Positions 15,512 through 47,700 of a stretch of 64,000 nt of DNA are shown here, piece by piece. Source of the stretch: an uncultured Litoreibacter sp. (GTDB taxonomy: Bacteria > Pseudomonadota > Alphaproteobacteria > Rhodobacterales > Rhodobacteraceae). The notes beneath the pieces were generated by a model, which had not been told where the DNA came from, did no database searches, and was given only the letters and a program-made list of their open reading frames with translations. The stretch's first letter is position 1. Each line of letters starts with the position of its first letter. Both the position numbers and the translations under genes were made by a program. Location: the NCBI GenBank assembly GCA_947494435.1, contig CANLUY010000004.1:8106-72105 (forward strand), in the 5' to 3' direction.

Positions 15512-15539
15512 AGTATATTATTGCAACACTAGATATATC
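15512..15539. promoter_or_regulatory. Conjugation-associated AT-rich motif copy 1, overlapping a possible minus-strand TTGCAA-N17-CATACT promoter
   Basis: AGTATATTATTG...ATATATC matches sites at 25251-25277 and 47575-47601. Confidence 0.6.
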
Positions 15540-15677
15540 TTTGATCTTTGCCGCGTAAGGTTTATTATGTAAAGTGAATCAGTAATGCTGACCTAAAAAC
15601 ACTTTCAGACATGCCCTCAGATGAGTGTCATGCTTTCAATAGATGAGTTTCCGCTCAACCGGGTGATCGCACCCAAT

Positions 15678-16280
15678 TCAAAGGCATCCGTACCTACGCA
15701 GCGCGGTCCTTAGTGCATCCGCTGTCAGAAACTGATGTGCTTGAAATCCTATTTTTACGGCTGCGTCGCAGTTCGTCTTTTTGTCGTCAACGAATAGCGT
15801 TTCATTCGGGTCGAGTTCGAATGTGTCGATGGTCAATCTGTAGATTTCGGGATCAGGCTTAATCACAGCGACATCACCGGACACAATCACGCCTTCAAGT
15901 TCATCGAGGGCCGAGGCAGATACGCGTGCAGCATCAAATGCTTCGCGACATGCGTTCGTGAGACCATACATCGGGATATTGGCTTTCTTCAGGTCCAAAA
16001 TGATTGCTTCAATCTCGATCAAACTATGTGAGTGCGCCAAATCAATATGGTCGCGATATGCTTCAAAGACAAAGTAATGATCAGGGTAGTCGGCTTTTGC
16101 GATCCGCATGGCCTCGCCCCACGAGCGGCCTCGATCCAGTTCGAGGTTCCACGCTGCAAAGTTGCAGGCTTTGAGCAAGCGTAACGCCGAATCTCGCGAT
16201 CCGGTCAGGTGTGAAAGCGCGTTCTCGGGCTCCCATTTGACGACGACATTCCCGACATCGAAGACCACTGCTTTTATCAT
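15678..16280 (-). CDS. HAD-superfamily phosphatase
   Basis: AVVFDVGNVV, LTN, IKPDPEIY, FVDD motifs. Confidence 0.9.
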   Translation of the reverse strand: MIKAVVFDVGNVVVKWEPENALSHLTGSRDSALRLLKACNFAAWNLELDRGRSWGEAMRIAKADYPDHYFVFEAYRDHIDLAHSHSLIEIEAIILDLKKANIPMYGLTNACREAFDAARVSASALDELEGVIVSGDVAVIKPDPEIYRLTIDTFELDPNETLFVDDKKTNCDAAVKIGFQAHQFLTADALRTALRRYGCL

Positions 16281-16406
16281 TCTGATCCGCCTCAGTTTAG
16301 CTCATTTGAAGCTGTTTTTTCTATTTCTATGCCTGTGAAAACAAGCGGTGACGCCATGCTTATTGATGCGCTTCGCTCTGTAACATGAAGGTTTTTACAC
16401 GAGGCT

Positions 16407-16429
16407 ATTGATTAAAACAAATGATTTGC
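16407..16429. promoter_or_regulatory. Putative ROK-regulator operator
   Basis: ATTGATTAAAACAAATGATTTGC is 19/23 identical to the reverse complement of 22178-22200. Confidence 0.65.
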
Positions 16430-16566
16430 GTAAATAGAGACATCACGGCAGGATCCTGCCCTCTCCCAAGTGGGATGATGTCGTGACGGAAGGCCGATGG
16501 CGGGGGACGACCGCCGCCTTCGGGTAAATTGCGCATGAGACGCAGAAACCAACAGGAGGATGACCC

Positions 16567-17829
16567 ATGGGTCTGAAAACTACTACTTTAAGCGTATCAG
16601 CCGCTATGCTGATGACCGCGGCGTCGAGCGTTTCTGCGCAAGACGTCACACTAGACTACTGGGTGTATGCGGATTTCGCGACCGGCGCTGCCGGTGATCT
16701 TCAGGAAGCATTTATCTCGGAGTTCGAGGAAGCCAATCCAGGGGTGACCATCAACATGACAGGTCGCGCCGGTGGCGATCTGACGGCGGGCACGATTGCC
16801 GGTGCTGCCAGCGGCGACATCCCTGACATCTTCATGAACACCACCGCTGTCGGTGCGCAACTCGATCAGGCTGGCGCTCTGGCGAACATCTATCCCTACT
16901 GGTCCGCCCTGCCACAGGACGTGCGCGACCAGTTCAACCCTGAGCTGATCGACCTATGCACACCGCGTCCAGAAACGATGCTCTGCATTCCTTACACCGG
17001 CTACGGCTCGTTCATGTATCGCAATCTTGGCGTTCTGGAAGAAGCTGGGATCGACCCCGATGCACCTATCGAGACGTGGGACCAGTGGCTCGCTCAAATG
17101 GAGCAGATCGACGCTGCCGGAAAAACCGCCGTGCCTGACATGTCTCTTATCTGGTTCTCGATCCTCGCCGTCTACGCGGGTCTCGTTGACGAAAGCGCAT
17201 GGGGCATCGACTGGGAAACCAAAACGACACTGATTCAGCCGGAACCCTATGCCCGTGCGCTTGAAGTGATCGCACAGATGGAGCCCTACTCCAGCGGAAC
17301 ATCGCTCTGGGATCAGGCCACCAACGACCTTTTCACCAGTGGTGAGCTGGCCTTTTCCCTGAACGGCCCTTGGGCGAACCCAGGCTACGAGAAGGCCGCA
17401 GAAGCCAACTCCGACTTCCGTTATGACTGGGTTTTGGTTCCTGGACCCGAAGCTGGTTCTTCAGGCGGAGTTCAAGGTTATGAAATGATTGGGATTGCGC
17501 CGGGCGAGAATGCAGAGATTGCCTTCAACTTCGTCATGCACGTCGTCGAGAAAGAACAAATGGTTCGCTGGGCCAGCGAGCTTGGTCGCTATAACTCGAA
17601 CCAAGCTGCGCTGGATGCTGTCGGCGAAAACTCTCTTCTTGAGATCACGGCCGCTGCCATTCCAGGTTCGCTCTATAACCGCCCTCCATTCTTCGAAGGC
17701 GTCTATCCTGCTGATTACTACCAGACGATGGTGGATTTCGCGCAAGAGGTCGTCGGCGGTGATATGACTGCGGAAGAAGCCGCCGCCGCGACGGTCGAAG
17801 CCCTAAACGAATTGCTGCAAGACGGCTAA
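16567..17829 (+). CDS. Carbohydrate ABC transporter substrate-binding protein (CUT1)
   Basis: Signal peptide, FEEANPGVTI, PDIF, LMYRN-like and NGPW motifs; heads the ABC operon. Confidence 0.9.
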   Translation: MGLKTTTLSVSAAMLMTAASSVSAQDVTLDYWVYADFATGAAGDLQEAFISEFEEANPGVTINMTGRAGGDLTAGTIAGAASGDIPDIFMNTTAVGAQLDQAGALANIYPYWSALPQDVRDQFNPELIDLCTPRPETMLCIPYTGYGSFMYRNLGVLEEAGIDPDAPIETWDQWLAQMEQIDAAGKTAVPDMSLIWFSILAVYAGLVDESAWGIDWETKTTLIQPEPYARALEVIAQMEPYSSGTSLWDQATNDLFTSGELAFSLNGPWANPGYEKAAEANSDFRYDWVLVPGPEAGSSGGVQGYEMIGIAPGENAEIAFNFVMHVVEKEQMVRWASELGRYNSNQAALDAVGENSLLEITAAAIPGSLYNRPPFFEGVYPADYYQTMVDFAQEVVGGDMTAEEAAAATVEALNELLQDG

Positions 17830-17847
17830 TCTCGTTCTCTCCCCTTT

Positions 17848-17874
17848 GGGCGGCGGTTCTTCCTGCCGCCGCCC
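17848..17874 (+). other. Stem-loop after the substrate-binding gene (mRNA-stabilising or partial terminator)
   Basis: GGGCGGCGG-N9-CCGCCGCCC perfect 9-bp stem. Confidence 0.55.
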
Positions 17875-17895
17875 ATTGCTTCCAAAGGATTTCAG

Positions 17896-18783
17896 ATGAC
17901 TCGCTCCCTCAGAACACTTGCGCCGCATTACGTGATGCTGCTGCCGTTCTTCGCGCTTTTTGTGGTGTTCTTCCTCTACCCAATCGGGAGTGGCTTTTAT
18001 TACAGCTTCTTTCAGTGGGACGCGATCAACGAACCGACCTATGTGGGTGTCGAGAATTACAGCGACATCATGGGTTCGCGAAAATTCGAAAAAGGCATCA
18101 CCAACATCCTGACCTACGTGGCGATTACAGTGCCGCTTGGGATTACAGTGGCCTTCTTGCTGGCCGTTCTCGTTGATAGCTTCAACGGCTTCTGGTCGAA
18201 GGTGTTCCGATCTGCTTACTTTGTACCCGTCATGATGCCGCTCTTTCTTGCAGCGACGCTCTGGCGGTGGATTTACGCACCAAACTTTGGGATTCTTAAC
18301 ACGTTTCTTGGATGGTTTGGCATCGACTCGATCAACTTTCTAAACAACACCGATACGATGCTCCTGGCAATGATTGCCGTCGACGTTTGGGTTTCGGCGG
18401 GATTCAATATGGTCATCATTCTGGCCGGTCTAAAAAATGTGCCGCAACATCTCTACGAGGCCGCGCGGCTCGACGGGGCAAACAAGCTTCAAGAAATCCG
18501 CTATGTGACGATCCCGATGATCGCGCCAGTGCTGTTCTTCGTCGTCACTTACGGTTTCATCTCCGCGTTGCAGGTTTTCGACGTCCCGTGGCTTCTGACC
18601 ACATCCGAGTTCACCAGTTACGGTGGTCGTAGACAAACGCTTCTTTTCCCCGTCATGGATATGATCGGACGCGGTTTTGGAGCTCTGAAGTTCGGCGAGG
18701 CAGCTGCCTATGGCTTTATCTTGACGGTCATTATCATGACCGTAACCGCAACCCTATTCCTGATCCGCCGGAGAATAAAATGA
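17896..18783 (+). CDS. Carbohydrate ABC transporter permease
   Basis: EAA motif LYEAARLDGAN; six TM segments. Confidence 0.92.
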   Translation: MTRSLRTLAPHYVMLLPFFALFVVFFLYPIGSGFYYSFFQWDAINEPTYVGVENYSDIMGSRKFEKGITNILTYVAITVPLGITVAFLLAVLVDSFNGFWSKVFRSAYFVPVMMPLFLAATLWRWIYAPNFGILNTFLGWFGIDSINFLNNTDTMLLAMIAVDVWVSAGFNMVIILAGLKNVPQHLYEAARLDGANKLQEIRYVTIPMIAPVLFFVVTYGFISALQVFDVPWLLTTSEFTSYGGRRQTLLFPVMDMIGRGFGALKFGEAAAYGFILTVIIMTVTATLFLIRRRIK

Positions 18784-19664
18784 CCGACGCTATCGCTAGC
18801 CCTTCGGCCCTTGCCTCGAACCGTCGAAAGATCAAAGTGCCGTCCCTCTGGACCGTCCTGAAATGGATCGCCGCCATCTCGGTGGCAGTAGTAGCACTCT
18901 TCCCGCTCTGGTGGATGTTCAGCGTTGTGTTCGCGGAAGCCGGTGTGCCGGTCGCGGTCAACCCGCGGCTCTACCCGACATCCTTTACAGACGGGTTTGC
19001 GAAAATCTGGGAAGTCTTTGAGGAGACTGGTTATCTACGCGCCTACTACGTTTCGATCATGTATACGATCCTGACCATTGCAGGCGTCCTGCTGATCAGC
19101 TCGATGGCAGCGTTCGAGTTCGCGCTGTTCGATTTTCCGGGAAAGAACGCGCTCTTCGCTGTCGTGATGCTGTCACTGATGGTTCCGCTTGCCGTTACGC
19201 TGATCCCGACCTATCTGCTGGTCGCGCAACTTGGCTGGGTAAACACGATGCAGGGCCTTGTTGTGCCGGGTCTTGCTTCAGCCTTTGGTCTCTTCATGAT
19301 GACGCAATTCATGCAAAGCATCCCTAAAGAGACGCTAGAGGCTGGCCGACTCGAAGGTGCGAACCACTTCCAACTTTATTGGTATATCGCCCTGCCCCTT
19401 TCGAAGAACGCACTGATTACGCTTGCGATCCTGACGTTCATGAAAACCTGGGGCAACTTCATCTGGCCGCTCGTCGTCTCGAATACGCGCGAGGTCTACA
19501 CGGTCAGTCAGGTCATTAACCAATTCAACTCGCCCTTCTCGCATACCACGGTTGATGTCGTCATGACGGCAAACTTCCTTGCAGCGATCCCACCCATTCT
19601 CTTCTTCGTCTTCTTCCAGCGATGGATCATCGAAGGTGTCCAGATGTCAGGCTCCAAGGGCTGA
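18780..19664 (+). CDS. Carbohydrate ABC transporter permease
   Basis: EAGRLEGAN, WGNFIWPL motifs. Confidence 0.92.
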   Translation: MTDAIASPSALASNRRKIKVPSLWTVLKWIAAISVAVVALFPLWWMFSVVFAEAGVPVAVNPRLYPTSFTDGFAKIWEVFEETGYLRAYYVSIMYTILTIAGVLLISSMAAFEFALFDFPGKNALFAVVMLSLMVPLAVTLIPTYLLVAQLGWVNTMQGLVVPGLASAFGLFMMTQFMQSIPKETLEAGRLEGANHFQLYWYIALPLSKNALITLAILTFMKTWGNFIWPLVVSNTREVYTVSQVINQFNSPFSHTTVDVVMTANFLAAIPPILFFVFFQRWIIEGVQMSGSKG

Positions 19665-19703
19665 CTCAGGACGAAGACGGAAAAAACCTAAGAAAGAACG
19701 CCA

Positions 19704-20801
19704 ATGTCTGACCTCCAGATCAAAGACGCCGTAAAGAGCTACGGCAACGTGGATGTCCTCCACAACATCAATCTCGACATCGAGTCCGGCGAGTTCGTCG
19801 TTCTGGTCGGCCCTTCTGGTTGCGGCAAGTCGACCTTGCTTCGTATGATCTCCGGACTGGAAGATATTTCTGGTGGTGAGATGTTCATTGACGGAGAACT
19901 GGTGAACGATGTCGATGCTGCCAAACGCGGAATCGCCATGGTATTCCAGTCCTACGCGCTCTTCCCACACATGACTGTCGCGGAAAACATGGGGTTCAGC
20001 CTCAAGCTGGCGAAGGCTCACAAGTCCGAGATCAACGAAAAGGTGCGCCGCGCGGCGGAAATCCTGCAATTGGAAAAGCTGTTGGAACGCAAGCCCAGTC
20101 AGCTTTCGGGCGGGCAGAAACAGCGTGTCGCCATCGGCCGTGCCATCGTGCGCAACCCGAAGGTATTCCTTTTCGATGAACCGCTTTCGAACCTCGATGC
20201 GGAGCTGCGGATCGAAATGCGGGCGGAACTGATCCAACTCCATAAACAGCTCAAGACAACGATGATCTACGTGACCCACGATCAAGTTGAAGCCATGACG
20301 CTGGCCGACAAGATGGTCGTTCTCGAAGGCGGCCAAGTCCAACAAGTCGGAAAGCCGCTCGAACTCTATGATGACCCATCCAACATGTTCGTCGCCGGAT
20401 TTGTCGGCACGCCGCGTATGAACTTTTTACCCGCCGAGGTTGTCGATGTGTCCAACACAACATCGACACTGCGCTTCGCCGCCGAGAATGGCGCACCGGA
20501 AGTCGTACTGCCCATGACAGACGGAAAACTCGCGATCGGCTCGAAGGTCAGCGTCGGGATCCGCCCCGATCATCTGCACTTCAGCCCCGCGCAGTCCGGT
20601 GATCTGGCGATCCCCATCGACGTGGCCTTTGTCGAAGAACTGGGTGATCTCACCTACGTCTATGTCGACACAAAAGCCGGAACGCGGCTTTCGTCGCAGA
20701 AAAAAGATGGGCGGCACAATCACGGAACGACAGGTTATGCCGTTGCCGACACTACTTCGATGTTCATCTTCGACGCAGACGGTCATCGCGTCCGCGCCTG
20801 A
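19704..20801 (+). CDS. Carbohydrate ABC transporter ATP-binding protein (MsmK/UgpC-like)
   Basis: Walker A GPSGCGKST, LSGGQKQR, FLFDEP, VTHDQ; TOBE-like tail. Confidence 0.95.
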   Translation: MSDLQIKDAVKSYGNVDVLHNINLDIESGEFVVLVGPSGCGKSTLLRMISGLEDISGGEMFIDGELVNDVDAAKRGIAMVFQSYALFPHMTVAENMGFSLKLAKAHKSEINEKVRRAAEILQLEKLLERKPSQLSGGQKQRVAIGRAIVRNPKVFLFDEPLSNLDAELRIEMRAELIQLHKQLKTTMIYVTHDQVEAMTLADKMVVLEGGQVQQVGKPLELYDDPSNMFVAGFVGTPRMNFLPAEVVDVSNTTSTLRFAAENGAPEVVLPMTDGKLAIGSKVSVGIRPDHLHFSPAQSGDLAIPIDVAFVEELGDLTYVYVDTKAGTRLSSQKKDGRHNHGTTGYAVADTTSMFIFDADGHRVRA

Positions 20802-20816
20802 CGAACCGCAGTTTGG

Positions 20817-22058
20817 CTAGGTTCCGGTCAGAAGGTTGTAGAGGCTGTTGTCCTCTTCGGGCCGGACATAGCCGATGCCGGTGTGTTGATGGTTCTGTGG
20901 CGGGTTGATCAGCACCGATAGTGGAAGTGCCGCCGCACCCCGCGCCACGTCACCGGACGCGAGCCGCAAATCAGGCATAGGAATGTGTCCCCGCGTCGGC
21001 TTCACATGGTTCAGCTCGGTCTCGGTCATCCTGACCAACTCTTCTAATAGTCCGTGCGGCAACTGGCCGCCGAAAAATACCATTTGCGGGTCCATAGTAT
21101 GCGTAACGCTACGAACCGCCGTTGCGAGGTGAGGTGCTGAGTCTTGCAGCCACTCCCGCATCTTCGGATCGTTGCTCTCATACGCGGCAGCAATGCGTCC
21201 GGGTGGAACCGACGTGAACTCCTCCCCTGATCCCACGATCGCCTGATAGGCAGCAAGCCTGGACACGTATCGCTCAAGACAGCCTGACGCGCCGCACGGG
21301 CAGTCCCGACCGCCTGGCTCGACCAAGATATGGCCGAACTCGCCTGTTCGGCTATGCGCCCCGGTAACAGGTTTGCCTTCGACAAAGACACACCCGCCGA
21401 GGCCCAGACCAAAGTAGAAATAGAGGAACGATCCGATGTTGCGCGCGTCGCCGAAGAGATTCTCGCCAATTGCAGCCGCTGTAGCATCATTCTCCACAAA
21501 AACTGGTAGGCCAAAGGCTTCGGAAAATGCGTCGGCGACCGGATAGCCGTCCCATTCCTGCATAGAAAAAGTAGCTCCAGAGAAAAACCGCTTTTCCCGG
21601 AACAGACCCGGCATGGCTACACCGACCCCGATCAGTTTGCTGCGCACGGTTGGATGCTCGGCGCACAGCTGCTCGATGAGGGTCCGCGCGAGGGCCTTCA
21701 CATCGTCTGGACGCTGTTCGGCCAGCTCATGACGCGCTTCCGACATGACCGTGCCATTGCCGTTCGTCAGTGATCCAATGATCCGGTGCTGGTCAATGTG
21801 CAGACCGATGGAAGCGAACCCGTCGTAATCGACCAGAAACTCGCGGGCGGGCTTGCCCTTCTTACCTGTATGGATGCTGCGCTCGATGATGATCCCGAAC
21901 GGCATCAGTTCGGCCACGATGTTGGAAACGGTCTGGGGCGTCAGCCGCGTTTGCTCGGCGATATCGGTTCGGGAGATCGGTCCATGACGCAGAATGGATT
22001 CGAGTGCGACCCGCCTGTTGAGGCCTTTAGCAAATTCAGAATTGGCCCCTTTGAGCAT
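20817..22058 (-). CDS. ROK-family transcriptional regulator
   Basis: N-terminal HTH (ISRTDIAEQTRLTPQTVS), VENDATAAAIGE, GEFGH, CPCGASGCLE. Confidence 0.92.
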   Translation of the reverse strand: MLKGANSEFAKGLNRRVALESILRHGPISRTDIAEQTRLTPQTVSNIVAELMPFGIIIERSIHTGKKGKPAREFLVDYDGFASIGLHIDQHRIIGSLTNGNGTVMSEARHELAEQRPDDVKALARTLIEQLCAEHPTVRSKLIGVGVAMPGLFREKRFFSGATFSMQEWDGYPVADAFSEAFGLPVFVENDATAAAIGENLFGDARNIGSFLYFYFGLGLGGCVFVEGKPVTGAHSRTGEFGHILVEPGGRDCPCGASGCLERYVSRLAAYQAIVGSGEEFTSVPPGRIAAAYESNDPKMREWLQDSAPHLATAVRSVTHTMDPQMVFFGGQLPHGLLEELVRMTETELNHVKPTRGHIPMPDLRLASGDVARGAAALPLSVLINPPQNHQHTGIGYVRPEEDNSLYNLLTGT

Positions 22059-22177
22059 ACCGGTCTCTCCTTAACCCTTGCCCATACAGGCCCCTGTTCG
22101 ATGCTGCGTCTCGGCGGTTTATAGCTTGCAAACACGGGCAATTACATCCCCCACCCTACAATGGTTGCTTGAATATT

Positions 22178-22200
22178 ACTAATCATTTGTGTTAATCAGT
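22178..22200. promoter_or_regulatory. Putative ROK-regulator operator
   Basis: ACTAATCATTTGTGTTAATCAGT, imperfect palindrome between divergent ROK regulator and SIS genes; matches 16407-16429. Confidence 0.65.
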
Positions 22201-22235
22201 CACACAGGTAAATTGGAATCGAAGGCAGGACAATC

Positions 22236-23282
22236 ATGCTCGTTAAAGACTACATTCAGGAGCAGCCCGAGATGGCAGCACAGATGATCCGCGAGCTGCC
22301 GGATACTTATGCTGCGCTACTGCCCGCGTCACAGCCCGAAGCAATCTTGCTCGTTGGCACCGGCAGCTCAATGAATGCGCTGATGACTGCCCTGCCCGTC
22401 TTTCGCAAAACCGGCGCGGCAGTGGTGTTGGTTAGCCCGCAGGAGTGTCTAGAAAGCCTCGCAGACATGCCCACCGACAAAACTCTCGCCATCGTTGTCT
22501 CCCAGTCCGGTGAAAGTATCGACACGCTGCACGCCACCGAGGCGCTTTTGAAGCGTGATACATCTGTAATCGTGCTGACCGGCAACCCGGACAGTCCGTT
22601 GGCGCAAACCGGAGCCGCAGTCGCGGCCATGCCGGTTGCCGATGAACAGATCGGGCCGAAAACGAAGGGCTACTCGGCAACAGCGCTCGCGCTGCAAATC
22701 CTGGGTCATGCGCTGACGGGTCACGACTTGCCAGACGATACCGCCAGTGTGGTCTCAAATATGGAAACCTTCTCACTTCAGTCAGAGCGATGGGCCATCA
22801 ACTTCGCCATGCGCGCAGCCAAGGCGGATGTGCTGGTTGTTCTCGGTCAAAAGCAACATGTCGGGACCGCCAGCGAGGGATCGTTGAAAATCGCGGAGAT
22901 GAGCGGTCTTCCCAGCTTCGGCGAGGAAACCGAAGAGATGTCGCACGGTCGCTTCCATGGGCTAACGGAACGCTCGCTCGTGTGCTTCATTACCGCGATC
23001 GATGCCGAGTATGACTTCGCCTGCCGGATGAAAGCCGCGCTGAAAAACTTCTCTATCCAAGCGGAGATCGTGGACGTCCGCCCGTCTCTCCAAGCCGCCG
23101 AAGAGGCCGGTTTGAAATGGCCAGGAAAATCCAGCAACACCCTCCTCGCGCCGATCATCGCCGCGCTACCGTTTCAGTATCTTGCGGTGCATACCGCACT
23201 CGTGAAAGGTATTGATCCTGAAAAGATGCGCTACCCGACCATGGGCAAGTATCTCAAAATCAAGGTTGGGACCGCAGCCTGA
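22236..23282 (+). CDS. Double-SIS-domain sugar-phosphate isomerase/deaminase/deglycase (GlmS-C/FrlB/AgaS-like)
   Basis: EQPE, GTGSS, SQSGES, KTKGYSAT, EGSLKIAE, EEMSHG motifs; no glutaminase domain. Confidence 0.85.
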   Translation: MLVKDYIQEQPEMAAQMIRELPDTYAALLPASQPEAILLVGTGSSMNALMTALPVFRKTGAAVVLVSPQECLESLADMPTDKTLAIVVSQSGESIDTLHATEALLKRDTSVIVLTGNPDSPLAQTGAAVAAMPVADEQIGPKTKGYSATALALQILGHALTGHDLPDDTASVVSNMETFSLQSERWAINFAMRAAKADVLVVLGQKQHVGTASEGSLKIAEMSGLPSFGEETEEMSHGRFHGLTERSLVCFITAIDAEYDFACRMKAALKNFSIQAEIVDVRPSLQAAEEAGLKWPGKSSNTLLAPIIAALPFQYLAVHTALVKGIDPEKMRYPTMGKYLKIKVGTAA

Positions 23283-24223
23283 TGAACAAATTTGCATACG
23301 CCGTCGACATCGGTGGCACGTCGATCAAACTCGGCATCATTTCCGAATCCGGCGAAATTCTGATGCGGTCCTCTCTGAAGACCGCCAAGGACATGCCGCT
23401 TCCGACGCTGGTCAAGAAGATCGGTCTACAACTTAACGAAATCGCCGCAATGGCCGGTGTGAAGCCCGCCAGCGTCGGTATTTGCGCCCCTGGCTATCCT
23501 GATCCAAAGACCGGCGTTTTGATCGATGGATCTGGTGCCGTTCCTAGCCTGAAAACCGGCTCAATCTCACGGGCGCTCTCCACGTTCCTTGGCGTTCCCG
23601 CCGGTATCGGAAACGATGGTACATGCGCCGCGCACGGCGAGCGTCAGTTCGGCGCAGGTAAGAACCACCGCTCTTTCATCTATATATGCATCGGAACCGG
23701 AATCGGTGGAGCCATCGTGCATGAAGGCCGCGTCCTCGAAGGACCTAACGGGGAACCGCCCGAGTTCGGAGCGATCTGTGTGCGACCCGGGCAGGGCGAA
23801 TCAAGACGTGGCTTGAAAGGGTCAATTGAGGATCTAGCTGGGGGTCGCGCCTTGGTTGAGACCTACAAAAGCGAAACCGGCTGGGGTGACGAGCCACTGG
23901 CTGTAAACGATTTACGGGAGAAAGCCATATCCGGCGACAGGGCTGCTATCAGGCTTTTCGATGATGCGACCGACCAGCTTGCCCAGACCATTGGCGGGCT
24001 GATCAACGCAAGCTGCGTTACCGAGTGCATCATCGGTGGCGGACTGTCGAAAGCAGGCAGTTTCCTCATTGATCCTATCCAGAGGAAAATCGTCCAATAC
24101 ACTTGGAAAATGTTCGCGGATCAGGCGCGCGTTCACGCAAGTAAACTAGGCAATGACGCTGGCATGCTAGGAACTTTGGCGTTGCTCCAAAAGCCTGAGG
24201 AGCTTCGGACATATGGAGCCTAA
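23282..24223 (+). CDS. ROK-family sugar kinase
   Basis: AVDIGGTSIK, GNDGTCAAHGE, IGTGIGG, EFG, IIGGG motifs; no HTH. Confidence 0.9.
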   Translation: MNKFAYAVDIGGTSIKLGIISESGEILMRSSLKTAKDMPLPTLVKKIGLQLNEIAAMAGVKPASVGICAPGYPDPKTGVLIDGSGAVPSLKTGSISRALSTFLGVPAGIGNDGTCAAHGERQFGAGKNHRSFIYICIGTGIGGAIVHEGRVLEGPNGEPPEFGAICVRPGQGESRRGLKGSIEDLAGGRALVETYKSETGWGDEPLAVNDLREKAISGDRAAIRLFDDATDQLAQTIGGLINASCVTECIIGGGLSKAGSFLIDPIQRKIVQYTWKMFADQARVHASKLGNDAGMLGTLALLQKPEELRTYGA

Positions 24224-24278
24224 TCGAAGCAGAACTGCTTAATCTCGCGGAAAAACAAAGTATGTGCGAGTATCTCAA

Positions 24279-24476
24279 ATGAGTGATTCAGATAGGTTTG
24301 AAGCACATCAAGTAGCTTTGTTGAAACACCCAAAGAGCGGCGAACTCGTCGGCAGACTATATCTTTGGGAAAATGGCGAGGTCGATCCAATGTGGTTTGG
24401 TGAAGAAGTCATTGATGCAATCGCTGATCCTCTCCCAGGTGAGTCCCCAAATTGGGCAAGCTGGCCCTTGACTTAA
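24279..24476 (+). CDS. Small hypothetical protein
   Basis: MSDSDRFEAHQVALLKHPKSGELVGRLYLWENGEVDPMW; protein-like composition. Confidence 0.55.
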   Translation: MSDSDRFEAHQVALLKHPKSGELVGRLYLWENGEVDPMWFGEEVIDAIADPLPGESPNWASWPLT

Positions 24477-24505
24477 CGCTCAGAGTTCAGCGTTTGTGTG
24501 TCGAT

Positions 24506-24763
24506 TTAGATCCGATGATCCAATTCCGTATGCTCTTCCGCTAACGATACAAGTTCTCGAACGTCTGTCCCGATCGAACGAGCGAGCACAATCAACTCAA
24601 TCACATCAACCCGGCGCTCCCCGCTTTCGATTCTCGCGACAAACGACTGATGACACTTTAGTTTCTTGGCGAGGTCAGACTGCGTCATGCCAGCCGCTTT
24701 CCTTGCTGCGATCAGAGCTTCGCGCAACGCCTCATGTCCTGAGCTTCTGATTGTTTTTGTCAC
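24506..24763 (-). CDS. XRE/HTH_3 transcriptional regulator
   Basis: ARKAAGMTQSDLAKKLKCHQSFVARIESGERRVD. Confidence 0.9.
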   Translation of the reverse strand: MTKTIRSSGHEALREALIAARKAAGMTQSDLAKKLKCHQSFVARIESGERRVDVIELIVLARSIGTDVRELVSLAEEHTELDHRI

Positions 24764-24789
24764 GCGTCACAAACCTCTTGTGACTGCGC

Positions 24790-24823
24790 TAATCTAGAAT
24801 ATAGATTATCTAAAATTTAGATA
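24790..24823. promoter_or_regulatory. Tandem palindromic operators ATCTA-N5-TAGAT
   Basis: TAATCTA-gaata-TAGATTA and TATCTAAA-a-TTTAGATA just upstream of the XRE gene. Confidence 0.65.
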
Positions 24824-24882
24824 TTGTGGATACTGGAAGCTGCGCGGTGCTTACTGACGTTAACTTTGAAGAAAAATGCGGC

Positions 24883-25182
24883 CTATTGGGATGTATCCTC
24901 CAAAAATTGTCCATACAGCTCGCTTACCTCTCGAGCCTCTTCGAACGCACGCGCACGCTCAGAGTCCAAGCATCGAAAGTATTCCTGAATGTCTGCAATA
25001 TAATCTTCAAAATCCTGTTTGATCAGATCCTCAAATTCGAGTTGGGCTGCGAGATCGTCAGGAACAAAGGGAACGCGTGGTGGGTAGCAGGTCTTTGCGC
25101 TAGCTGTCGTTGCGAGAAAAGACCAAATGATCAGCGCCGGGATGACGCAATTTCGGCACAACCTAAGGTTCAGAAATCCCAT
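24883..25182 (-). CDS. Secreted hypothetical protein adjacent to the T4SS operon
   Basis: Signal peptide, CYPPRVPFVP, YFRCLDSERARAF. Confidence 0.7.
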   Translation of the reverse strand: MGFLNLRLCRNCVIPALIIWSFLATTASAKTCYPPRVPFVPDDLAAQLEFEDLIKQDFEDYIADIQEYFRCLDSERARAFEEAREVSELYGQFLEDTSQ

Positions 25183-25250
25183 AAAAACTTGATATTATGC
25201 TGTGCGCATGCCTATTGGATGTGTGACTACACTGTAGCCGCACATGGTTA

Positions 25251-25287
25251 AATATACCTTGCGGACAATTATATACTATCGTAACTT
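25251..25287 (+). promoter_or_regulatory. Candidate virB operon promoter (TTGCGG-N17-TAACTT) overlapped by conjugation motif copy 2
   Basis: AATATAC-N8-CAATTATATACT at 25251-25277. Confidence 0.55.
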
Positions 25288-25344
25288 TGGGCTTCAAGTA
25301 GGAATGCCTGAGGCTGCGTCTTTGAAGAAAGCGCGAACCGGGCC

Positions 25345-25698
25345 ATGAACTGGGACATCGAAGCACCAAATGTGGTTACGGAAGCACGTTTCCGCGAACT
25401 CGTGGAAAGTGGCGACAGCGCTGAAATCCTCTGCCAGGAATCGGCACATAAGAAGGGCCCCAGCTACTACGGGGTCTGGATCATGCGCGTCGTCTCTGAC
25501 GAGGGCGTGGAAAAGCTACTGGTCACGGCCCGTACCCGCACGACCTACAACGATATCAAGATCCGCGAGTTCAAAACCATCACGGGCGTGGTGTCCTTCC
25601 TCATGGGGATCGGTTTCTCTCATGCCGATGTCCCGCTCGAAGAAGGCCAGCGAACAACGCACAAGCTGGCCGCGACTGACAAAGGCGGCGGCAAGTAA
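25345..25698 (+). CDS. Hypothetical protein, first gene of the virB operon
   Basis: 117-aa ORF with T4SS-like codon usage, overlapping the transglycosylase start region. Confidence 0.7.
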
Positions 25699-26356
25699 CC
25701 TTCTCCTTGTCTGGTATCTCGCGGGTCCCGCCACTGCTCAGATGGTATTGGTCATGGAGAGCGACGGTTCTCTGACCCCGTCCCACTCCCAGGACAGCTT
25801 TGCCCGCAACTATAACGACGGTATCGGTCAGGGGTTCGCTGCTGATGAGCTGGCGATCCTTGGCGACCGAGAAACTGAACAAGAAGACATTCAATTGGCG
25901 GCCCTCTCGCGGCCCGCTCCTCTACCCCGCGCTGATGTTCTGGCGGCCATCGAGGCCACCGCCCTTCGCTACGCCGGTCATCCCGGGTTGCGGCGCACGG
26001 ATCTCTCGGTTCGTGATTGGCTGACGCTCTACCGTGCCAATATCGAAGTCGAGAGTGCCTACCGACAGGATGCGGTCTCGAGCGCTGGTGCAATTGGCCT
26101 CGGGCAGTTGATGCCTGCAACGGCGCGCGATCTAGGTGTAGACCCGCATGATCCGTTGCAGAACCTCGATGGCTCCGCCCGCTATCTCGCGATGATGCTG
26201 GAGGCGTTCGGCGATCCGCGCCTGGCGCTCGCGGCATACAACGCTGGCCCGGATGCGGTCCGCCAGTATGGTGGCATTCCCCCCTACCGAGAAACCCAGA
26301 ACCACGTGGCCAGTGTCATGGCCGTCGTGGCCCGATTGGAAGGATCAAATTCATGA
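25676..26356 (+). CDS. virB1: VirB1-like lytic transglycosylase (start approximate)
   Basis: SLT motifs [27 protein letters not shown]; signal-peptide-like segment ending AGPATAQ. Confidence 0.85.
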
Positions 26357-26646
26357 GACAGATTTCAAACCTATTCGTCGCCTCACTGGCGCTCTTCCTG
26401 CTCCTCGCAGAGCCGGCCCTTGCTCAAAGCATCGATCTCTCTCCGATCCAAAGCCTGTTGCAGGGTATCGTCGATGCGCTGACCGGCCCGCTTGGCGTTG
26501 TCATCGCGACGCTCGCTGTTCTCGGCGTTTTTTTGAGCTGGTTCTTCAATATCATCGATCTCCGCCAGGCGCTTTGGGTGCTTGTCGGCATTGCAGGTGT
26601 CGCTGCCGCTCCCACCATCGTTGCCGCGGTCTTTGCCGGTGGCTGA
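26353..26646 (+). CDS. virB2: VirB2/TrbC pilin
   Basis: Signal peptide, two hydrophobic helices, position before virB3/virB4. Confidence 0.88.
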
Positions 26647-31387: not shown

Positions 31388-31402
31388 TCTGAGGTGTGAC
31401 GC

Positions 31403-32056: not shown

Positions 32057-32057
32057 T

Positions 32058-34129: not shown

Positions 34130-34133
34130 GCCC

Positions 34134-35730: not shown

Positions 35731-35742
35731 GGTATTTGAGAG

Positions 35743-41599: not shown

Positions 41600-42331
41600 T
41601 CACGGCAACAAAGGCCGTGATTGATCGAGATAGGCCGGATCGAAATCCGCCAATGCAACCAGCCCCTCGTAGTCATCGAAGGTTACTAGCCCGCCCTGAA
41701 ACGTGACGAGCCCTCGTTCGCGGAGTTTGCGAAGGACGCGGTTGACGTGGATGGCACTTAACCCCAACGCATCTGCCAGATGATACTGTGTGAGCGGACA
41801 GGCATAGCCTTCCCTGCTCCCCATACCGACGAGTGACAGTCTCACGCCAAGCTCCAGCAGAAAATGCGCCATGCGCGCATCCGCATCGCGCCGCCCGAGC
41901 CCAACAAGATGCTCGACAACCATCGCTTCGTCCCGCGACACGGCCCAGAGAATGGCCGTGGCCAGCCGTGGTGTCTCTGCGAAGGCTTGCAGAAGATCGC
42001 TCACTAGAACCTCCGCCGCCTCGATATCGACGATGGGTTCGATCCCATGATCGGATGTGTGCAACAGGACGCTGCGCAGGCCCAAAAAGTCCCCCGGTAT
42101 CTGGAAATCAACGATCTGCCGCGACCCGTCAGCCTGGATCTTGTAAGAAACGACCCAACCTGCCGCCAGGATGTAAGCAGCCTGTTCCAATTGACCCTGG
42201 TGAACCAAGTCTCGCCCTGAAGAGAAAGACTTCCTCCGCTGATGCAAGCGCTCCAGAACCACCAGTTCCGTCTCCGAAAGAGCAACAAACGCAGAGAGCT
42301 TTTGGGTAAGTGGGCTGGCTTTGATGTTCAT
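41600..42331 (-). CDS. Crp/Fnr-family transcriptional regulator
   Basis: DGSRQIVDFQIPGDFLG; HTH PLTQYHLADALGLSAIHVNRVLRKL. Confidence 0.92.
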   Translation of the reverse strand: MNIKASPLTQKLSAFVALSETELVVLERLHQRRKSFSSGRDLVHQGQLEQAAYILAAGWVVSYKIQADGSRQIVDFQIPGDFLGLRSVLLHTSDHGIEPIVDIEAAEVLVSDLLQAFAETPRLATAILWAVSRDEAMVVEHLVGLGRRDADARMAHFLLELGVRLSLVGMGSREGYACPLTQYHLADALGLSAIHVNRVLRKLRERGLVTFQGGLVTFDDYEGLVALADFDPAYLDQSRPLLP

Positions 42332-43062: not shown

Positions 43063-43065
43063 TTC

Positions 43066-45090
43066 TTAGCCAACACTGACGCTTTCACTTGCCGTGTTCC
43101 CGCCCTCCGCCATCTTAGTAACTTTGCCTTCTAACTGCTCGAGATCGCTTAGAGCGAGTTCGACCTGACTCACGTCTTCTGCGGACGGATTGTCGAACTC
43201 CAAGTGCGCCTGCGCGTCGAAATCCATCTCGATTTGCCGCTGATGGTCTGCAATCACTGCCGCGCAAACTTGCGGCTGTTTACGTAGTCCTTCCATCGTT
43301 GTCGTAGCTGGTCTGTCGCGCCGTGACAGGGCCTCGCCAGCTTTTGCGTCAAATGAACCATGAGACCCTGCGCTGCTTGGCGCCGCCGTTCTTTCACCTT
43401 TTGCGGCATCACCTCTCGGTCTGTCCTTTGAGCCAACGGGAAAAGGCATCTCCCCATTCTGCGCCGCATGAATCCTCTTGAAAAACGGATCATCGAAATA
43501 CTGTATCCGCTTGGCCCTCACCGGCATCTGCGCGTCCACGACCACTACAATCTCATCAAGCGGCAACCGGCGCGCCTCATCCTCAGGCAACAATGACGTT
43601 TCCTCCGTCCGCGTCGATTGGCTCCTGCCCTCAAAGGGATTCTTACCGATTGACCGCGACTTGGTGACAACGGTCTTCGTGGTCTTACCAACCGCCTTGC
43701 TGAGTTCCTCGACCGTCTTTTCATCTGACGGTGTGAGATACAGCTTCACGCCCGCGTTCCCTTGCAGCGCCCGGCGGGTGTTCTCCCCGTATATTTCATC
43801 GATGGCTGGGATGGTTTGTGTGACTACGGCGAGATGCCCCCGATAGTGCCGCAGCACCTCAATGCTCTCGGCCACGATCGGCATTTTTCCCAGTCGGTTG
43901 AACTCGTCGAGCATGATCATCACTGGCCATGGCTCATCTGGACCCGGCTCTTTGTCTTGCAGGGCAGACAACAGGTCAGAAAACAGTAGCCGGATGAGTG
44001 GTGCGAGTGGTTTCACCATCAGGGGCTGAACGACCAGATAGACGCTGAACGGCTTCTTGCGGATTGTGCGGAAATCAAAATCTGACACTGCCGTTGCCTC
44101 GTCAATCGCCGGGTTCTGCCATTGATCCAAGCCTGACGTCATCAGGAGCGATACATAGGACGTCAGCGTATCGTTGTTTGTAGAGGCCAGCCGTGTAAAT
44201 ATCAGCTTCGCGGCTTTGTTCTCGATCTCGTGAGACCGCGCCAGATATTCCTTCTGCTTGTTCCCGCCTGAAGCCGCGATGCGATAGATTTCACCTAAGG
44301 TCGGTCTCTTGCGCTGGAACGCCAGCAACCCGGCTGCCACGAACAGATCAATACCGCCCTTCAGAAGGCCTTGGACACGGTCATTGTCGTTCTGCAGAAA
44401 CAGCGTTGCCAAGAGTTGCAACTCCATCTGCTGTCGCGCTGGATCCCTCAGATCATTAATGCGCAGCAGCGGGTTATAGCGATGGGTTCGATGGCCGTCC
44501 CAATCTGTCGGCGCAACCCGGTAAACCTTGTCACCCTGTGCCACCCGATGGCGCGCTGTCGCCTCATAGCATTCACCTTTCACGTCCAGCGTCACAGCTG
44601 ACCCTTGCCATGTCAGCAGGTTCGGGATGACAAATCCTGTCGTCTTACCCCGTCCCGTCGGGGCCACGATCAGGGCATGGGGAAAGGTCGTTGAGCAAAG
44701 AAACGGTGCCTTGGACTTTGGCTTTCCAAGTTTGCCGATTACAAAGCCGGTTCCCGGTTTTCCGAAGAACCCATTGCGCTTTAACTCGCGACGCGTCTGC
44801 CAATGCGTGTATCCAAAGCGGGTGAGCGCTGAGCCAGACATTGCAAGGCTCATCATAAGGCCCGCCACCCCTGCCCCGCCCATGATGAGGTTAACCAGTT
44901 GGAAATCATCCGGCCGGAACGCCCGCAGGCTCCAATAGTTCTTGGCGATGTAAAAGAAGTCGATCTCCGCCCCGAAGCCTATGTCCCGGTACGTCAGCAC
45001 CGCCGAAGCGATGACATAGCCGATGGCAATCGCGACGAGCGTGACCAAGACCACCCCGATCGCGAGCCGAGTTTTGCCCATGGTCCCCAT
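43066..45090 (-). CDS. virD4: VirD4/TraG type IV coupling protein
   Basis: N-terminal TMs, APTGRGKT, LDVKGE, MLDEFNRLG, VTQTIP. Confidence 0.95.
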   Translation of the reverse strand: MGTMGKTRLAIGVVLVTLVAIAIGYVIASAVLTYRDIGFGAEIDFFYIAKNYWSLRAFRPDDFQLVNLIMGGAGVAGLMMSLAMSGSALTRFGYTHWQTRRELKRNGFFGKPGTGFVIGKLGKPKSKAPFLCSTTFPHALIVAPTGRGKTTGFVIPNLLTWQGSAVTLDVKGECYEATARHRVAQGDKVYRVAPTDWDGHRTHRYNPLLRINDLRDPARQQMELQLLATLFLQNDNDRVQGLLKGGIDLFVAAGLLAFQRKRPTLGEIYRIAASGGNKQKEYLARSHEIENKAAKLIFTRLASTNNDTLTSYVSLLMTSGLDQWQNPAIDEATAVSDFDFRTIRKKPFSVYLVVQPLMVKPLAPLIRLLFSDLLSALQDKEPGPDEPWPVMIMLDEFNRLGKMPIVAESIEVLRHYRGHLAVVTQTIPAIDEIYGENTRRALQGNAGVKLYLTPSDEKTVEELSKAVGKTTKTVVTKSRSIGKNPFEGRSQSTRTEETSLLPEDEARRLPLDEIVVVVDAQMPVRAKRIQYFDDPFFKRIHAAQNGEMPFPVGSKDRPRGDAAKGERTAAPSSAGSHGSFDAKAGEALSRRDRPATTTMEGLRKQPQVCAAVIADHQRQIEMDFDAQAHLEFDNPSAEDVSQVELALSDLEQLEGKVTKMAEGGNTASESVSVG

Positions 45091-46952
45091 CAGTGTGTCT
45101 GGCCGCGGTCGGTTTCACCGTCGACAAGATCTGCGCGGTCGCGTTCATATTCCCTGTCCGCGATTTCTTCGACAACGGTTCGCGCGGCTTCGCTGTTGGC
45201 CGTCGCCGCGTCTGATTGCAGATAGGCTTTTGCTGCATAGAGACGATCAAGGCGATCTTCGATCTGGGCTTTGAAAACATCCGCATCGCCGTTTCGCAAT
45301 GCAGCTACTTGCGCGTCATCCAACTCCCGCTCAACCGCGTCACGGTAATTCTGGCGTGCGTCGTCATCGGCGAAGGGAGACGAAAGATTGCCGTCCCTCT
45401 CGTGTGCAATGACACGTTGAACTTCCTCATTGGCATTGGGTCCGCCTGCGGTCTCCCACCCGACCTCTCGTGCCGTGACGCTGTTGCGATCAAACAAGTC
45501 CTCGCGGAACTCTTCGATCACCCCGTCTTCGCGCAAGACCTGCTCGCGCTCTAGAGTGATCCCCAACTGAACATGGACGCGATTCAGGGTTTCTCGCGCC
45601 TGCTCAAGATCCGCACGGCGTTCCAGATTGAGCCCATCCGTTTCAGCAACCCGCACCAGATCATCCGCGATCCACTGGCGCTCGAGCGCTGCATTTTGCG
45701 CACCTGCCTCCATTCGAGCCACGACGACACCAGTGCTGATCCCGGTGCCGCGCAGGGCCGTATCGACTTGTGCTCGTACATCCGGGTCTTGCAAGCGATC
45801 CAGTTGCTGGCGTTCGATGTTGTCCTCAGAATAGACCCCGCCTTCTGATGGTCGCTCTGTCAGGGTCACAGACCGCAGCCCCAGTGGCTGCATATGTGCC
45901 AGACGCGCCTGAATCTCGTTCAGGCTCTTCTCCAATTTCGGACGCTGAACCTCTGGTGTCTCTGCAATCATACCTTGGATCCGCGCAACCTGATCCGCAT
46001 AGCGGGTCTTTAGATCGTCAAAGCTCTGCTCTTCGGCCATATAGATGCCTCCTTCCAAGTTGAGCCGCCCGCCCTGCGCCAACATTTCGCCGGCGCGGAA
46101 CAACGCATCGGCAATATCATCCCGGTTCTCGCGCGACGCCTCGGCCGCCAGTGACTGGTAAATCTCACGGGTGTTTGCGATCTCGGCCAAGGCGCGCTCC
46201 AAGTCAGCACCGACGCGCTCTCGTTGCTCCGCCTCGCGCCCCTCGTTCTTGGCGGCATAAACCTCGCGCGTCCTCGGCGAGTAATGAACCACACCACGAT
46301 CAATGCGGCGGGTGGCTTCTAGACGGACACCGTATTTCTCGGCTTCCTCGACCATCGCCAGCCGAAAGTCGTCGTAGTTGAACCGATGGTTCCGCGCCAA
46401 ATAGAAGAATTCTCCCTCCTGCGACCGGCGGTTCAGGACGATATGGGCATGGGGGTGATCGCGGTCTTCATGAACAGCGATGATGTAGTCAAAGTGCCCG
46501 TCGTCATTCTGAAAAAACCGCTCAGCAACGTCTGAAGCGATGTCGCGTACATCCCCTCCATCCGTTCCAATCGGAAATGACATCAGCATATGTGTGGTCT
46601 GTCCGAGCTTGGGTTTGAACCCCGCGCTCCACCGTTTGGCAAAGCGCTCAGTCAGGTCTTTGATCTCGCGATTGTCCAGCTTGGATTTTCCATCCAGGAA
46701 CCCGCTGCTATCGACGATATGGGTAGACTTGGTGGTCAGATATCCAAGTTGGTTCGACAGTTCTGATTTGGAGTTTGTGCCTCCACCTCGGATCGCTTTG
46801 AAGACCGCCGCCCGGTGCCCGGCAGCGGCCCGAACAAGCTGCCGCTGCTTGGACACGTGCAGCCCTTGCATCGAGCCCCGGATGCGGCTCCAGCCATCCT
46901 GGAAGACTTCACCGGTAACCGCGTCGACGGCATCATTCAGCCGCATGCGCAA
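45090..46952 (-). CDS. virD2: VirD2-like MOBP relaxase
   Basis: AVFKAIRGGG..LGYL (motif I Tyr), THMLMSFP, AVHEDRDHPHAHIVLNR (HUH). Confidence 0.92.
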   Translation of the reverse strand: MRMRLNDAVDAVTGEVFQDGWSRIRGSMQGLHVSKQRQLVRAAAGHRAAVFKAIRGGGTNSKSELSNQLGYLTTKSTHIVDSSGFLDGKSKLDNREIKDLTERFAKRWSAGFKPKLGQTTHMLMSFPIGTDGGDVRDIASDVAERFFQNDDGHFDYIIAVHEDRDHPHAHIVLNRRSQEGEFFYLARNHRFNYDDFRLAMVEEAEKYGVRLEATRRIDRGVVHYSPRTREVYAAKNEGREAEQRERVGADLERALAEIANTREIYQSLAAEASRENRDDIADALFRAGEMLAQGGRLNLEGGIYMAEEQSFDDLKTRYADQVARIQGMIAETPEVQRPKLEKSLNEIQARLAHMQPLGLRSVTLTERPSEGGVYSEDNIERQQLDRLQDPDVRAQVDTALRGTGISTGVVVARMEAGAQNAALERQWIADDLVRVAETDGLNLERRADLEQARETLNRVHVQLGITLEREQVLREDGVIEEFREDLFDRNSVTAREVGWETAGGPNANEEVQRVIAHERDGNLSSPFADDDARQNYRDAVERELDDAQVAALRNGDADVFKAQIEDRLDRLYAAKAYLQSDAATANSEAARTVVEEIADREYERDRADLVDGETDRGQTH

Positions 46953-47514
46953 ACTCCCTCAACGCGGCAGTGGCCACGAGTTGCATCGCGTCTCGACGGC
47001 GGCGGACAAGCAAATCGATCTCATCCGCGCTGTCGAGAATGAAGCGTGCCAGCCCGCGCATCTGGGCGAGACGGAGCTCGGAGAACTCAGGGCCAGCCCC
47101 CTGCCCTATCCGGTTCGCTTGCGTCATCTGCTTTGCGATCTGCGCGACACCATTCCCAACCTCATGCAGAGACGCCCGATAGCGCGCCATCTCAGCAGCC
47201 AATTGGACGTCCGGAACAAAGGTCCCGCCCGCCGCTTGGATGAGCCTCCGAAGCCCTTCCGAGCGCGTCTCGATCCCCGCTGACGCCAGCACCGCATCGA
47301 AGGCTTGAAGTTCTTCAGGCGTGAGCTTCACGGTGACGGCAGAAGTCGCGACACCCGTATCCTTCTGGCGCTCCGCATCCGCTTTCACAACGTAGCGCAC
47401 GGCCCGCGATGTTACTCCGAACCTCTCCGCCAACAAGGATGATGAGACACCATCCGCAGCCTCGCGCACGATCTCCATCTTCTCGAGCTCAGTAAGTCGT
47501 TTCGCCTGTGACAT
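46933..47514 (-). CDS. MobC-like relaxosome accessory protein with N-terminal HTH
   Basis: LAERFGVTSRAVRYV HTH, RHH-like RSEGLRRLI, LHEVGNGVAQIAK; overlaps relaxase start. Confidence 0.7.
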   Translation of the reverse strand: MSQAKRLTELEKMEIVREAADGVSSSLLAERFGVTSRAVRYVVKADAERQKDTGVATSAVTVKLTPEELQAFDAVLASAGIETRSEGLRRLIQAAGGTFVPDVQLAAEMARYRASLHEVGNGVAQIAKQMTQANRIGQGAGPEFSELRLAQMRGLARFILDSADEIDLLVRRRRDAMQLVATAALREFAHAAE

Positions 47515-47700
47515 GCGGAAGAAAGCCCCCCTATTTCCTGCCACCTTCATACAAGGCCGCAATTATCATACGAGAATATACATAGCTGTCAATAATATAC
47601 TTATGGGGATTTGGTGAATGTGGCCTTGTATTCCGCTTCTCGCCGAGCACCGCAGGTGCGAGGTCGCACCCGAAAGGGCGCTCAGAATGCATTTTGTTGC
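47515..47700. other. Candidate oriT region
   Basis: Non-coding DNA upstream of mobC-relaxase; TATTTCCTG/CCA at 47532-47543 resembles MOBP nic sites; overlapping hairpins 47645-47683. Confidence 0.5.
47565..47601 (-). promoter_or_regulatory. mobC-virD2-virD4 promoter (TTGACA-N16-TATGAT) overlapped by conjugation motif copy 3
   Basis: -35 at 47592-47587, -10 at 47570-47565; AATATAC-N8-CAATAATATACT at 47575-47601. Confidence 0.65.

Follow-up and report, generated by a model that had tools for sequence, protein, structure and literature searches.

Three promoters of a conjugative transfer system carry the same pair of short TATA-centred boxes in a 64,000-nucleotide stretch of DNA from an uncultured Litoreibacter sp. 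(contig CANLUY010000004.1 of assembly GCA_947494435.1, positions 8,106 to 72,105; hereafter the window). Judged by comparison with related DNA, these three copies are instances of a cis-element that is conserved at three transfer promoters in a large Rhodobacterales plasmid family endowed with a VirB/VirD4 type IV secretion system (T4SS). The promoters are those of the virB operon for mating-pair formation (Mpf), which opens with a 117-aa gene (orf117), of the mobC-virD2-virD4 operon for DNA transfer (Dtr), and of a gene encoding a 251-aa protein. They most likely form one co-regulated unit, and the box pair would represent the operator of a regulator that is encoded by the plasmid backbone and coordinates the transfer genes, a reading to which we assign a probability of about 0.55. 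The three sites are as follows.

25251-25287, plus strand: site of the virB operon, with the exact motif, kept before the orf117 homologue in 83 loci; distal core TATAC at 25253-25257, -35-like TTGCGG at 25259-25264, proximal core TATAC at 25272-25276 inside the near-palindrome ATTATATACTAT (25268-25279), TCGTA at 25279-25283, and a possible -10 that is either TAACTT (25282-25287) or TATACT (25272-25277).
47565-47601, minus strand: promoter site of mobC, the relaxase gene and the coupling protein gene, found in 43 metagenome loci plus L002 and L053; distal box AGTATATTA at 47601-47593, -35 TTGACA at 47592-47587, proximal box TGTATATTCTCG at 47582-47571 and -10 TATGAT at 47570-47565.
15498-15539, minus strand: site before the 251-aa gene, with orthologous sites in ca. 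27 loci (consensus tTATAcTTagtGTTGCgATAGTATAtTaTcGta); distal box GATATATC at 15539-15532, -35-like TTGCAA at 15526-15521, proximal box AATATACT at 15519-15512 and, read by eye, a possible -10 CATACT at 15503-15498.

An earlier note on this DNA had described the motif as AATATAC-N8-CAATWATATACT, and exact matches do occur at 25251-25277 and 47575-47601 on the plus strand, that is two where 0.01 would be expected, a number that none of 100 dinucleotide shuffles reached. The third copy (GATATATCTAGTGTTGCAATAATATACT, 15512-15539, minus strand), announced as a close variant, has two mismatches and a gap of 9 instead of 8 nt. When the 64-kb window was scanned with a position matrix of the proximal box built from orthologues, these three places only scored above threshold. 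The orientation originally given to the mobC copy had to be reversed. The palindromic cores (ATATA) make the motif readable in either direction, and TATAY-N14-15-TATAYT indeed matches both strands at the virB and mobC sites; since mobC is encoded by the minus strand, reading the plus strand at 47575 gives the antisense of this gene, and the virB sense strand had therefore been aligned with the mobC antisense strand. The consensus beginning with CAATW also turned out to be specific to the window; what the relatives have in common is the pair of TATA cores together with the -35-like TTG and TWTCGTA.

Read in the direction of the gene, the sites share one layout composed of a distal TATAY, a -35-like TTGNNN, a proximal RTATAY with TWTCG and then TA; the proximal core is extended to RTATAY-TWTCG-TA, which abuts or runs into the predicted -10. 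The two RTATAY cores bracket the -35-like hexamer. Their proposed spacing of 19 bp holds at the virB and mobC sites but becomes 20 bp before the 251-aa gene, and at 19-20 bp the cores therefore lie on the same face of the helix. The promoter consensus, in gene direction, is AttatAtCTTGCgGttaaTaaTATACTATCGTAaCTcTGGGCTTC for virB, tTATAcTTagtGTTGCgATAGTATAtTaTcGtaTgtATgcTG for the 251-aa gene and ACGtAAGTATAtaATTGACAG.ttggTATAtTaTCGTAaGGT for mobC. A second conserved element, TTAACATAAACTTCATTATGCG (TTTACATAATAAACCTTACGCGGC in the window, 15550-15573, minus strand), is found ca. 5-10 nt upstream of the distal box of the 251-aa gene.

The relatives comprise 80 genomic loci found through their homology to the 117-aa protein, 47 metagenomic loci found in the same way with the protein encoded at the mobC position (the MobC-position protein), and several annotated plasmids. 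Conservation in orthologous promoters had been chosen in advance as the refutation test, and the element was found to be kept in all three promoter sets, in each of which the box positions are the most informative, at least matching the -35/-10 hexamers in information content. In 83 related sequences totalling 1.49 Mb, the strict pattern TATAY-N14-15-TATAYT matches 144 times, versus 0-3 times in block shuffles. After merging, 101 sites were obtained, of which 68 precede orf117, 28 precede the 251-aa gene and 3 precede mobC, the other 2 lying in different places; the element thus occurs almost nowhere else in this DNA, as expected of the transfer regulon marker that had been proposed. The site is kept where the virB leader is otherwise unrelated (L062, L068), and the DNA homology of the T4SS module with ca. 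100 plasmids begins at ca. 25251-25253, which is at the motif. The motif is also found in the virB promoter of pDSHI01 from Dinoroseobacter shibae, whose T4SS is inducible by N-acyl-homoserine lactone (AHL) (PMC4886583). A distant T4SS type, carried by the 57-kb plasmid pP70_f of Phaeobacter inhibens and by a 51-kb Roseovarius plasmid, displays altered boxes with the TATA pairs kept (TTATAATGTCGTA at virB; TTATARCG twice, with a spacing of 20, before a 260-aa gene). P. inhibens strains carry main-type plasmids too. The 4.4-kb pSG4, a mobilisable plasmid with mobC and no T4SS, has a distant MobC and no TATA pair.

The mobC promoters further indicate how the two boxes relate to each other. There, they form an 11-nt direct repeat, RTATAKWATYG, whose units have a per-position identity of 0.68-1.0 at 9 of 11 positions. 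The variable fifth base (TATAT versus TATAG) changes in concert in the two boxes: 20 sequences have T/T, 8 have G/G, 8 have T/G and a single one has G/T (p = 0.002 by Fisher's test, without correction for phylogeny), and this provides sequence evidence that one reader recognises both boxes. At the virB and 251-aa sites, the proximal 12-mer is a near-perfect palindrome (ATARTATAYTAT), self-complementary at 10-12 of 12 positions in 35 of 60 virB sites and in 14 of 26 251-aa sites, and its orientation is therefore not assignable at these two sites; in mobC promoters self-complementarity does not exceed 8 of 12. According to the operator reading, one sequence-specific protein from the conserved transfer backbone would bind both boxes as two cooperating units, occlude the -35/spacer region and repress the Mpf, Dtr and accessory genes together, its own operon being also under its control. 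What we infer here is the binding of a protein, the sign of the regulation and the identity of the factor.

Each copy had been said to overlap a plausible sigma70 promoter. A consensus scan agrees at mobC, with TTGACA-16-TATGAT (11/12; 47592-47565, minus strand), and at the virB site for a promoter that points leftward (10/12); the rightward virB promoter and that of the 251-aa gene were below the scan threshold and were read by eye. The TTGACA of mobC is kept in 39 of 41 distinct sequences and the downstream hexamer always fits TAnnnT, so that the boxes lie just upstream of the -35 and within the spacer. If the virB site is read like that of mobC, its rightward promoter would correspond to TTGCGG-17-TAACTT (25259-25287), a weak match whose second hexamer is TAACTC in most relatives. 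Other features around the promoters are listed below.

25268-25297, minus strand: leftward promoter at the virB site, TTGAAG-18-TATAAT (10/12), the strongest sigma70 match there; -35 TTGAAG at 25297-25292 and -10 TATAAT at 25273-25268, overlying the proximal box.
25238-25242 and 25260-25264: inverted repeat CCGCA/TGCGG that encloses the distal box and whose 3' arm is the -35-like hexamer.
47549-47558 and 47622-47631: 10-nt inverted repeat ATACAAGGCC/GGCCTTGTAT, 63 nt apart, bracketing the whole mobC promoter.

From its position, the leftward promoter would drive an operon for a 99-aa protein and an 85-aa XRE regulator; the main family keeps CTTCAAG as well as the box. The CCGCA/TGCGG repeat has compensatory variants in relatives (TGCAG/CTGCA, 6; TGCGA/TCGCA, 3; TGTAG/CTACA, 1), with loops of 7-16 nt, and probably forms a hairpin at the 5' end of the leftward mRNA instead of serving as a protein site. 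The arms of the mobC-flanking repeat change together among 43 loci (e.g. ACACCAAGGCTGCC/GGCAGCCTTGGTG), and this repeat may be a protein site of the relaxosome or of the origin of transfer (oriT), or else a T-strand hairpin. GC-rich hairpins are located next to it at 47640-47680. To the left of the virB site, a palindrome, CTACA-C-TGTAG (25227-25237), is replaced in most relatives by AGATAC-AGCC-GTATCT. This palindrome was rejected as an operator of the XRE regulator, since its sequence does not follow the XRE subtype: L010 and L042 differ in their palindromes although their XREs are nearly identical.

Three plasmid proteins, all named as candidates in the earlier note, were considered as binders of the boxes. 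The MobC-position protein is ranked as the most likely of them from its predicted structure: DNA-binding modules are predicted for no other universally present protein, and the long helices of this one could oligomerise. It is 72-88% identical across relatives and aligns by tblastn to genes annotated as mobC with 33-35% identity over 96% of its length. In Pfam and NCBIfam, HTH_28 and related helix-turn-helix (HTH) models match it, all below their cut-offs, no MobC model does so above its cut-off, and a weak match to the ribbon-helix-helix (RHH) region of NikR (NCBIfam) covers residues 61-95 with E about 0.07-0.09. The AlphaFold2 (AF2) model, with a predicted local distance difference test (pLDDT) score of 74, consists of an HTH (residues 9-51), a beta-alpha-alpha unit (60-94) and two long helices; no sequence match in the PDB and no significant whole-chain fold match were detected. 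Such a predicted architecture fits a dimer of dimers on two repeats two turns apart.

The product of orf117, ranked second, is the most conserved protein of the module (86-98% identical across genera in 82 loci) and is present in the distant family as well. No Pfam or NCBIfam family was found for it. Its AF2 model is confident (alpha/beta, pLDDT 83) and has no PDB neighbour at E < 0.4. A profile search yielded 161 clusters at 50% identity, nearly all of stand-alone proteins of ca. 110-130 aa; longer members have no Pfam domains, hence no informative fusion. The proposal that orf117 may be the box-binding master regulator of transfer is tentative and, in our view, rather unlikely.

A number of observations weigh against the box pair being an operator read by a backbone protein. 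The first relates to the virB leader, in which a 6-bp stem (25287-25292/25306-25311, TTGGGC/GCCTGA) with a loop of 13 nt, containing the -35 of the leftward promoter, shows compensatory or wobble variants in relatives (CTAGGC/GCCTAG, CTGGGC/GCCCAG and CCGGGC/GCCCGG). This stem is transcribed only if virB starts upstream of 25287, in which case the invariant TATACT (25272-25277) would be the -10; the virB proximal TATACT may thus be a -10 and not an operator within the spacer. None of the public sequencing runs holds the plasmid, the best run having a fraction of 0.17 of the sampled words, and the RNA runs that share words with it proved to be assembled contigs crossing the promoter, which give no start sites. 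The boxes are short, AT-rich and largely palindromic, which makes their orientation ambiguous, and their register relative to the -35/-10 differs among the three promoters, the 251-aa site being shifted by up to 4 nt depending on the -35 chosen. As the boxes keep their form while the register may differ, a binding site nonetheless explains them better than core promoter elements. Finally, the mobC promoter of two distant-family plasmids (L133, L135) has no TATA boxes, the predicted beta-strand of the MobC-position protein shows no clean covariation with the TATAT/TATAG variants, and orf117 has no recognisable DNA-binding fold or domain.

The neighbouring 85-aa XRE protein, whose gene begins at 24506, had been named among the candidate regulators. 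It could run a lambda-like or controller-protein-like switch with dimers on both boxes of all three promoters, and its operon is divergent from virB with its predicted -10 on the proximal box, an arrangement that makes autoregulation natural. Present in 51 of 82 loci, it has in all 51 the same recognition helix (HQSFVARxESGxRR), and it resembles known structures of XRE and restriction-modification controller proteins (3f6w, 5e-16; C.BclI, 3e-6; C.AhdI, 1e-3). The palindromic proximal box of the virB and 251-aa sites (10-12/12) would speak for such dimers, whereas that of mobC (at most 8/12) speaks against them. What disfavours the XRE is that the same site is retained in ca. 25 loci where a 70-aa or a 92-aa XRE with another recognition helix, encoded on the opposite strand, or a 310-aa HTH fusion takes its place, or where an XRE is missing altogether. 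The cassette swapped between plasmids, to the left of the 99-aa gene, was seen in L058-L082, where both alternative XREs are on the plus strand, and the motifs are identical in L072 (70-aa XRE) and L067 (85-aa XRE). In the distant type (the 57-kb P. inhibens and 51-kb Roseovarius plasmids), the TATA pair is kept and no annotated XRE was found next to the virB-type operon. The XRE is therefore ranked as the least likely of the three binders, and a switch of this kind is an improbable explanation of the three sites. Likeness to cI/Cro and C-protein switches lies in the small divergent XRE, the back-to-back overlapping promoters and the two TATA-centred operators; here, however, the site is kept without this XRE, unlinked promoters carry copies as well, and the spacing is 19-20 bp compared with ca. 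15 bp for C-boxes. An LVGxxYxW-type protein (24264-24476 in the window) recurs beside the swapped XRE cassette.

Alternatively, the boxes could be read by a host protein, either a nucleoid-associated silencer that binds AT-tracts or TA steps (H-NS-like or Ros/MucR-like) or the output of chromosomal quorum sensing. H-NS silences the tra promoters of F-like plasmids, and the Ros box of Agrobacterium virC/virD, the target of a chromosomal zinc-finger protein, is a TATA-rich dyad of similar span (ca. 25 bp) over divergent promoters in a VirD2-type system that is likewise alphaproteobacterial; no Ros/MucR gene was found here, where no search was aimed at one. A host reader would be in line with the T4SS expression of D. 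shibae, which needs chromosomal AHL signalling and not CtrA (PMC4886583, PMC6473078), and with a motif that is nearly invariant on plasmids of many genera while the adjacent plasmid regulators vary. On the other hand, the conservation of the motif in sequence and spacing is far tighter than is usual for silencers, and half-sites 19-20 bp apart are too wide for a LuxR-type dimer. In P. inhibens, a species that also hosts main-type plasmids, the divergent T4SS type has different boxes, and a plasmid-borne factor is favoured over a host factor for this reason; we consider a host reader unlikely.

The last alternative, in which no dedicated factor exists and the boxes are a common promoter architecture spread by duplication, with flexible TA steps or -10-like sequences (TATACT/TATATT), possibly shared by overlapping divergent promoters, could draw on the coincidence of the virB proximal box with the -10 of the strong leftward promoter, on the covarying leader hairpin and on the 5/6 match of TATAYT to TATAAT, but is distinctly improbable given that the mobC proximal box lies 6 nt after a perfect and conserved TTGACA and so is not the -10 of that promoter, that no divergent promoter or gene occurs at mobC, that the distal box has no sigma70 role and is yet conserved and co-varying with the proximal one, and that a spacing of 19-20 bp is unlike the -35/-10 geometry.

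Known motifs were also compared with the sites by eye and rejected. Those of CtrA (TTAA-N7-TTAA), alphaproteobacterial LexA (GTTC-N7-GTTC), FNR/CRP and IHF do not fit all three sites, nor do the geometries of RpoH, extracytoplasmic-function (ECF), sigma-28 and sigma-54 promoters, and for LuxR/TraR boxes the half-site spacing is too wide here.

By homology and gene content, the window is part of a Roseobacter-group conjugative plasmid. A megablast search with 24400-36000 returned 167 plasmids of this group (Rhodobacterales) at ca. 83-88% identity, from Phaeobacter, Sulfitobacter, Pseudosulfitobacter, Roseovarius, Dinoroseobacter and other genera, which are MOBP/MPF_T wherever the typing was looked up. 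The genes concerned are the following.

25345-36819, plus strand: Mpf operon, from the open reading frame (ORF) list and the annotation of syntenic plasmids.
25345-25698, plus strand: orf117 (117 aa), which opens the virB1-virB11/virB6 operon.
Downstream of orf117, plus strand: VirB1-like protein to VirB11, then two small ORFs (ORF list and syntenic annotation).
35743-36819, plus strand: VirB6/TrbL, with a TrbL/VirB6 Pfam match.
43066-47517, minus strand: Dtr operon mobC-virD2-virD4.
46933-47517, minus strand: MobC-position protein, HTH/RHH-like, directly upstream of the relaxase gene.
45090-46952, minus strand: VirD2/MOBP relaxase, with VirD2 and MobP1 matches.
43066-45090, minus strand: VirD4, the type IV coupling protein.
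14721-15476, minus strand: 251-aa Cys-containing protein, T4SS-linked, putatively secreted and encoded monocistronically.
24264-25182: variable regulatory cassette to the left of the virB site.
24264-24476, plus strand: 70-aa LVGxxYxW-type protein.
24506-24763, minus strand: 85-aa XRE regulator.
24883-25182, minus strand: 99-aa putative secreted protein.

The 251-aa product had been labelled TrbM/KikA-like, a label without support from hidden Markov models, as searches of Pfam and NCBIfam gave no family even at E = 10 and no TrbM/KikA match. By its appearance, its N-terminal hydrophobic segment resembles a signal peptide. Homologues occur 1-10 kb upstream of virB in 44 loci, most relatives having the gene 1-7 kb upstream and in the same orientation as virB. 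In the window, it is inverted and located ca. 9.9 kb from virB, with a HAD hydrolase, a sugar ABC transporter (16567-20801) and a ROK-type kinase-like gene (23282-24223) in between (15678-24223), which suggests an insertion or an inversion. A Crp/Fnr-family regulator gene (41600-42331, minus strand) sits between the Mpf and Dtr modules, and a gene for a DUF2958 protein (48125-48814, minus strand) is found upstream of the mobC region.

The proposed arrangement resembles, by analogy, kinds of system that are already known, namely multi-promoter transfer operators and RHH autoregulation. In IncW R388 and IncN pKM101 (KorA, ArdK, StbA, TrwA) as well as in IncP RK2 (KorA, KorB, TrbA), one short operator lies over several transfer promoters and is read by small plasmid-encoded proteins, often the first gene product of the repressed operon or a relaxosome accessory protein, so that the Mpf and Dtr genes come under a coordinated negative feedback. 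The element described here is alike in being a short motif at several transfer promoters that is rare elsewhere; it differs in that operator sequence and proteins are unrelated, in that it is a pair of TATA cores two turns apart and not a single palindrome, and in that the plasmid family is marine and alphaproteobacterial. The MobC-position gene precedes the relaxase gene, as do those of the RHH accessory proteins by which relaxase operons are autoregulated (TrwA, TraY, NikA, MobC-type), and its product is likewise predicted to have a beta-alpha-alpha unit and long helices; unlike them, it has an additional N-terminal HTH, the RHH assignment being based on a weak match and a moderate-confidence AF2 model. 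Just as NikR-type tetramers have half-sites two turns apart, the mobC promoter has two direct repeats 19 bp apart. We know of no operator copies of TrwA-type proteins at other promoters, whereas the same boxes are found here at two further promoters.

Papers on Roseobacter conjugation report that T4SS expression is AHL-dependent and CtrA-independent and make use of virB-promoter reporters (PMC4886583, PMC6473078, PMC11481893); in the literature searched on this subject, no description of the motif, of a promoter element or of a T4SS regulator was found. The VirB/VirD4 module is present on hundreds of Roseobacter-group plasmids, through which marine bacteria exchange traits such as the killing of algae, photosynthesis and the synthesis of antibiotics. 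Should orf117 prove to be the regulator, its fold would be a so far unrecognised DNA-binding one, made to read TATA cores in pairs, and the protein would control its own operon. The defined box pair would offer a cheap signature of this T4SS family, by which its promoters and the boundaries of its modules could be annotated in genomic and metagenomic sequences, and a direct experimental handle on a widespread marine conjugation module, including the link from quorum sensing to the plasmid.

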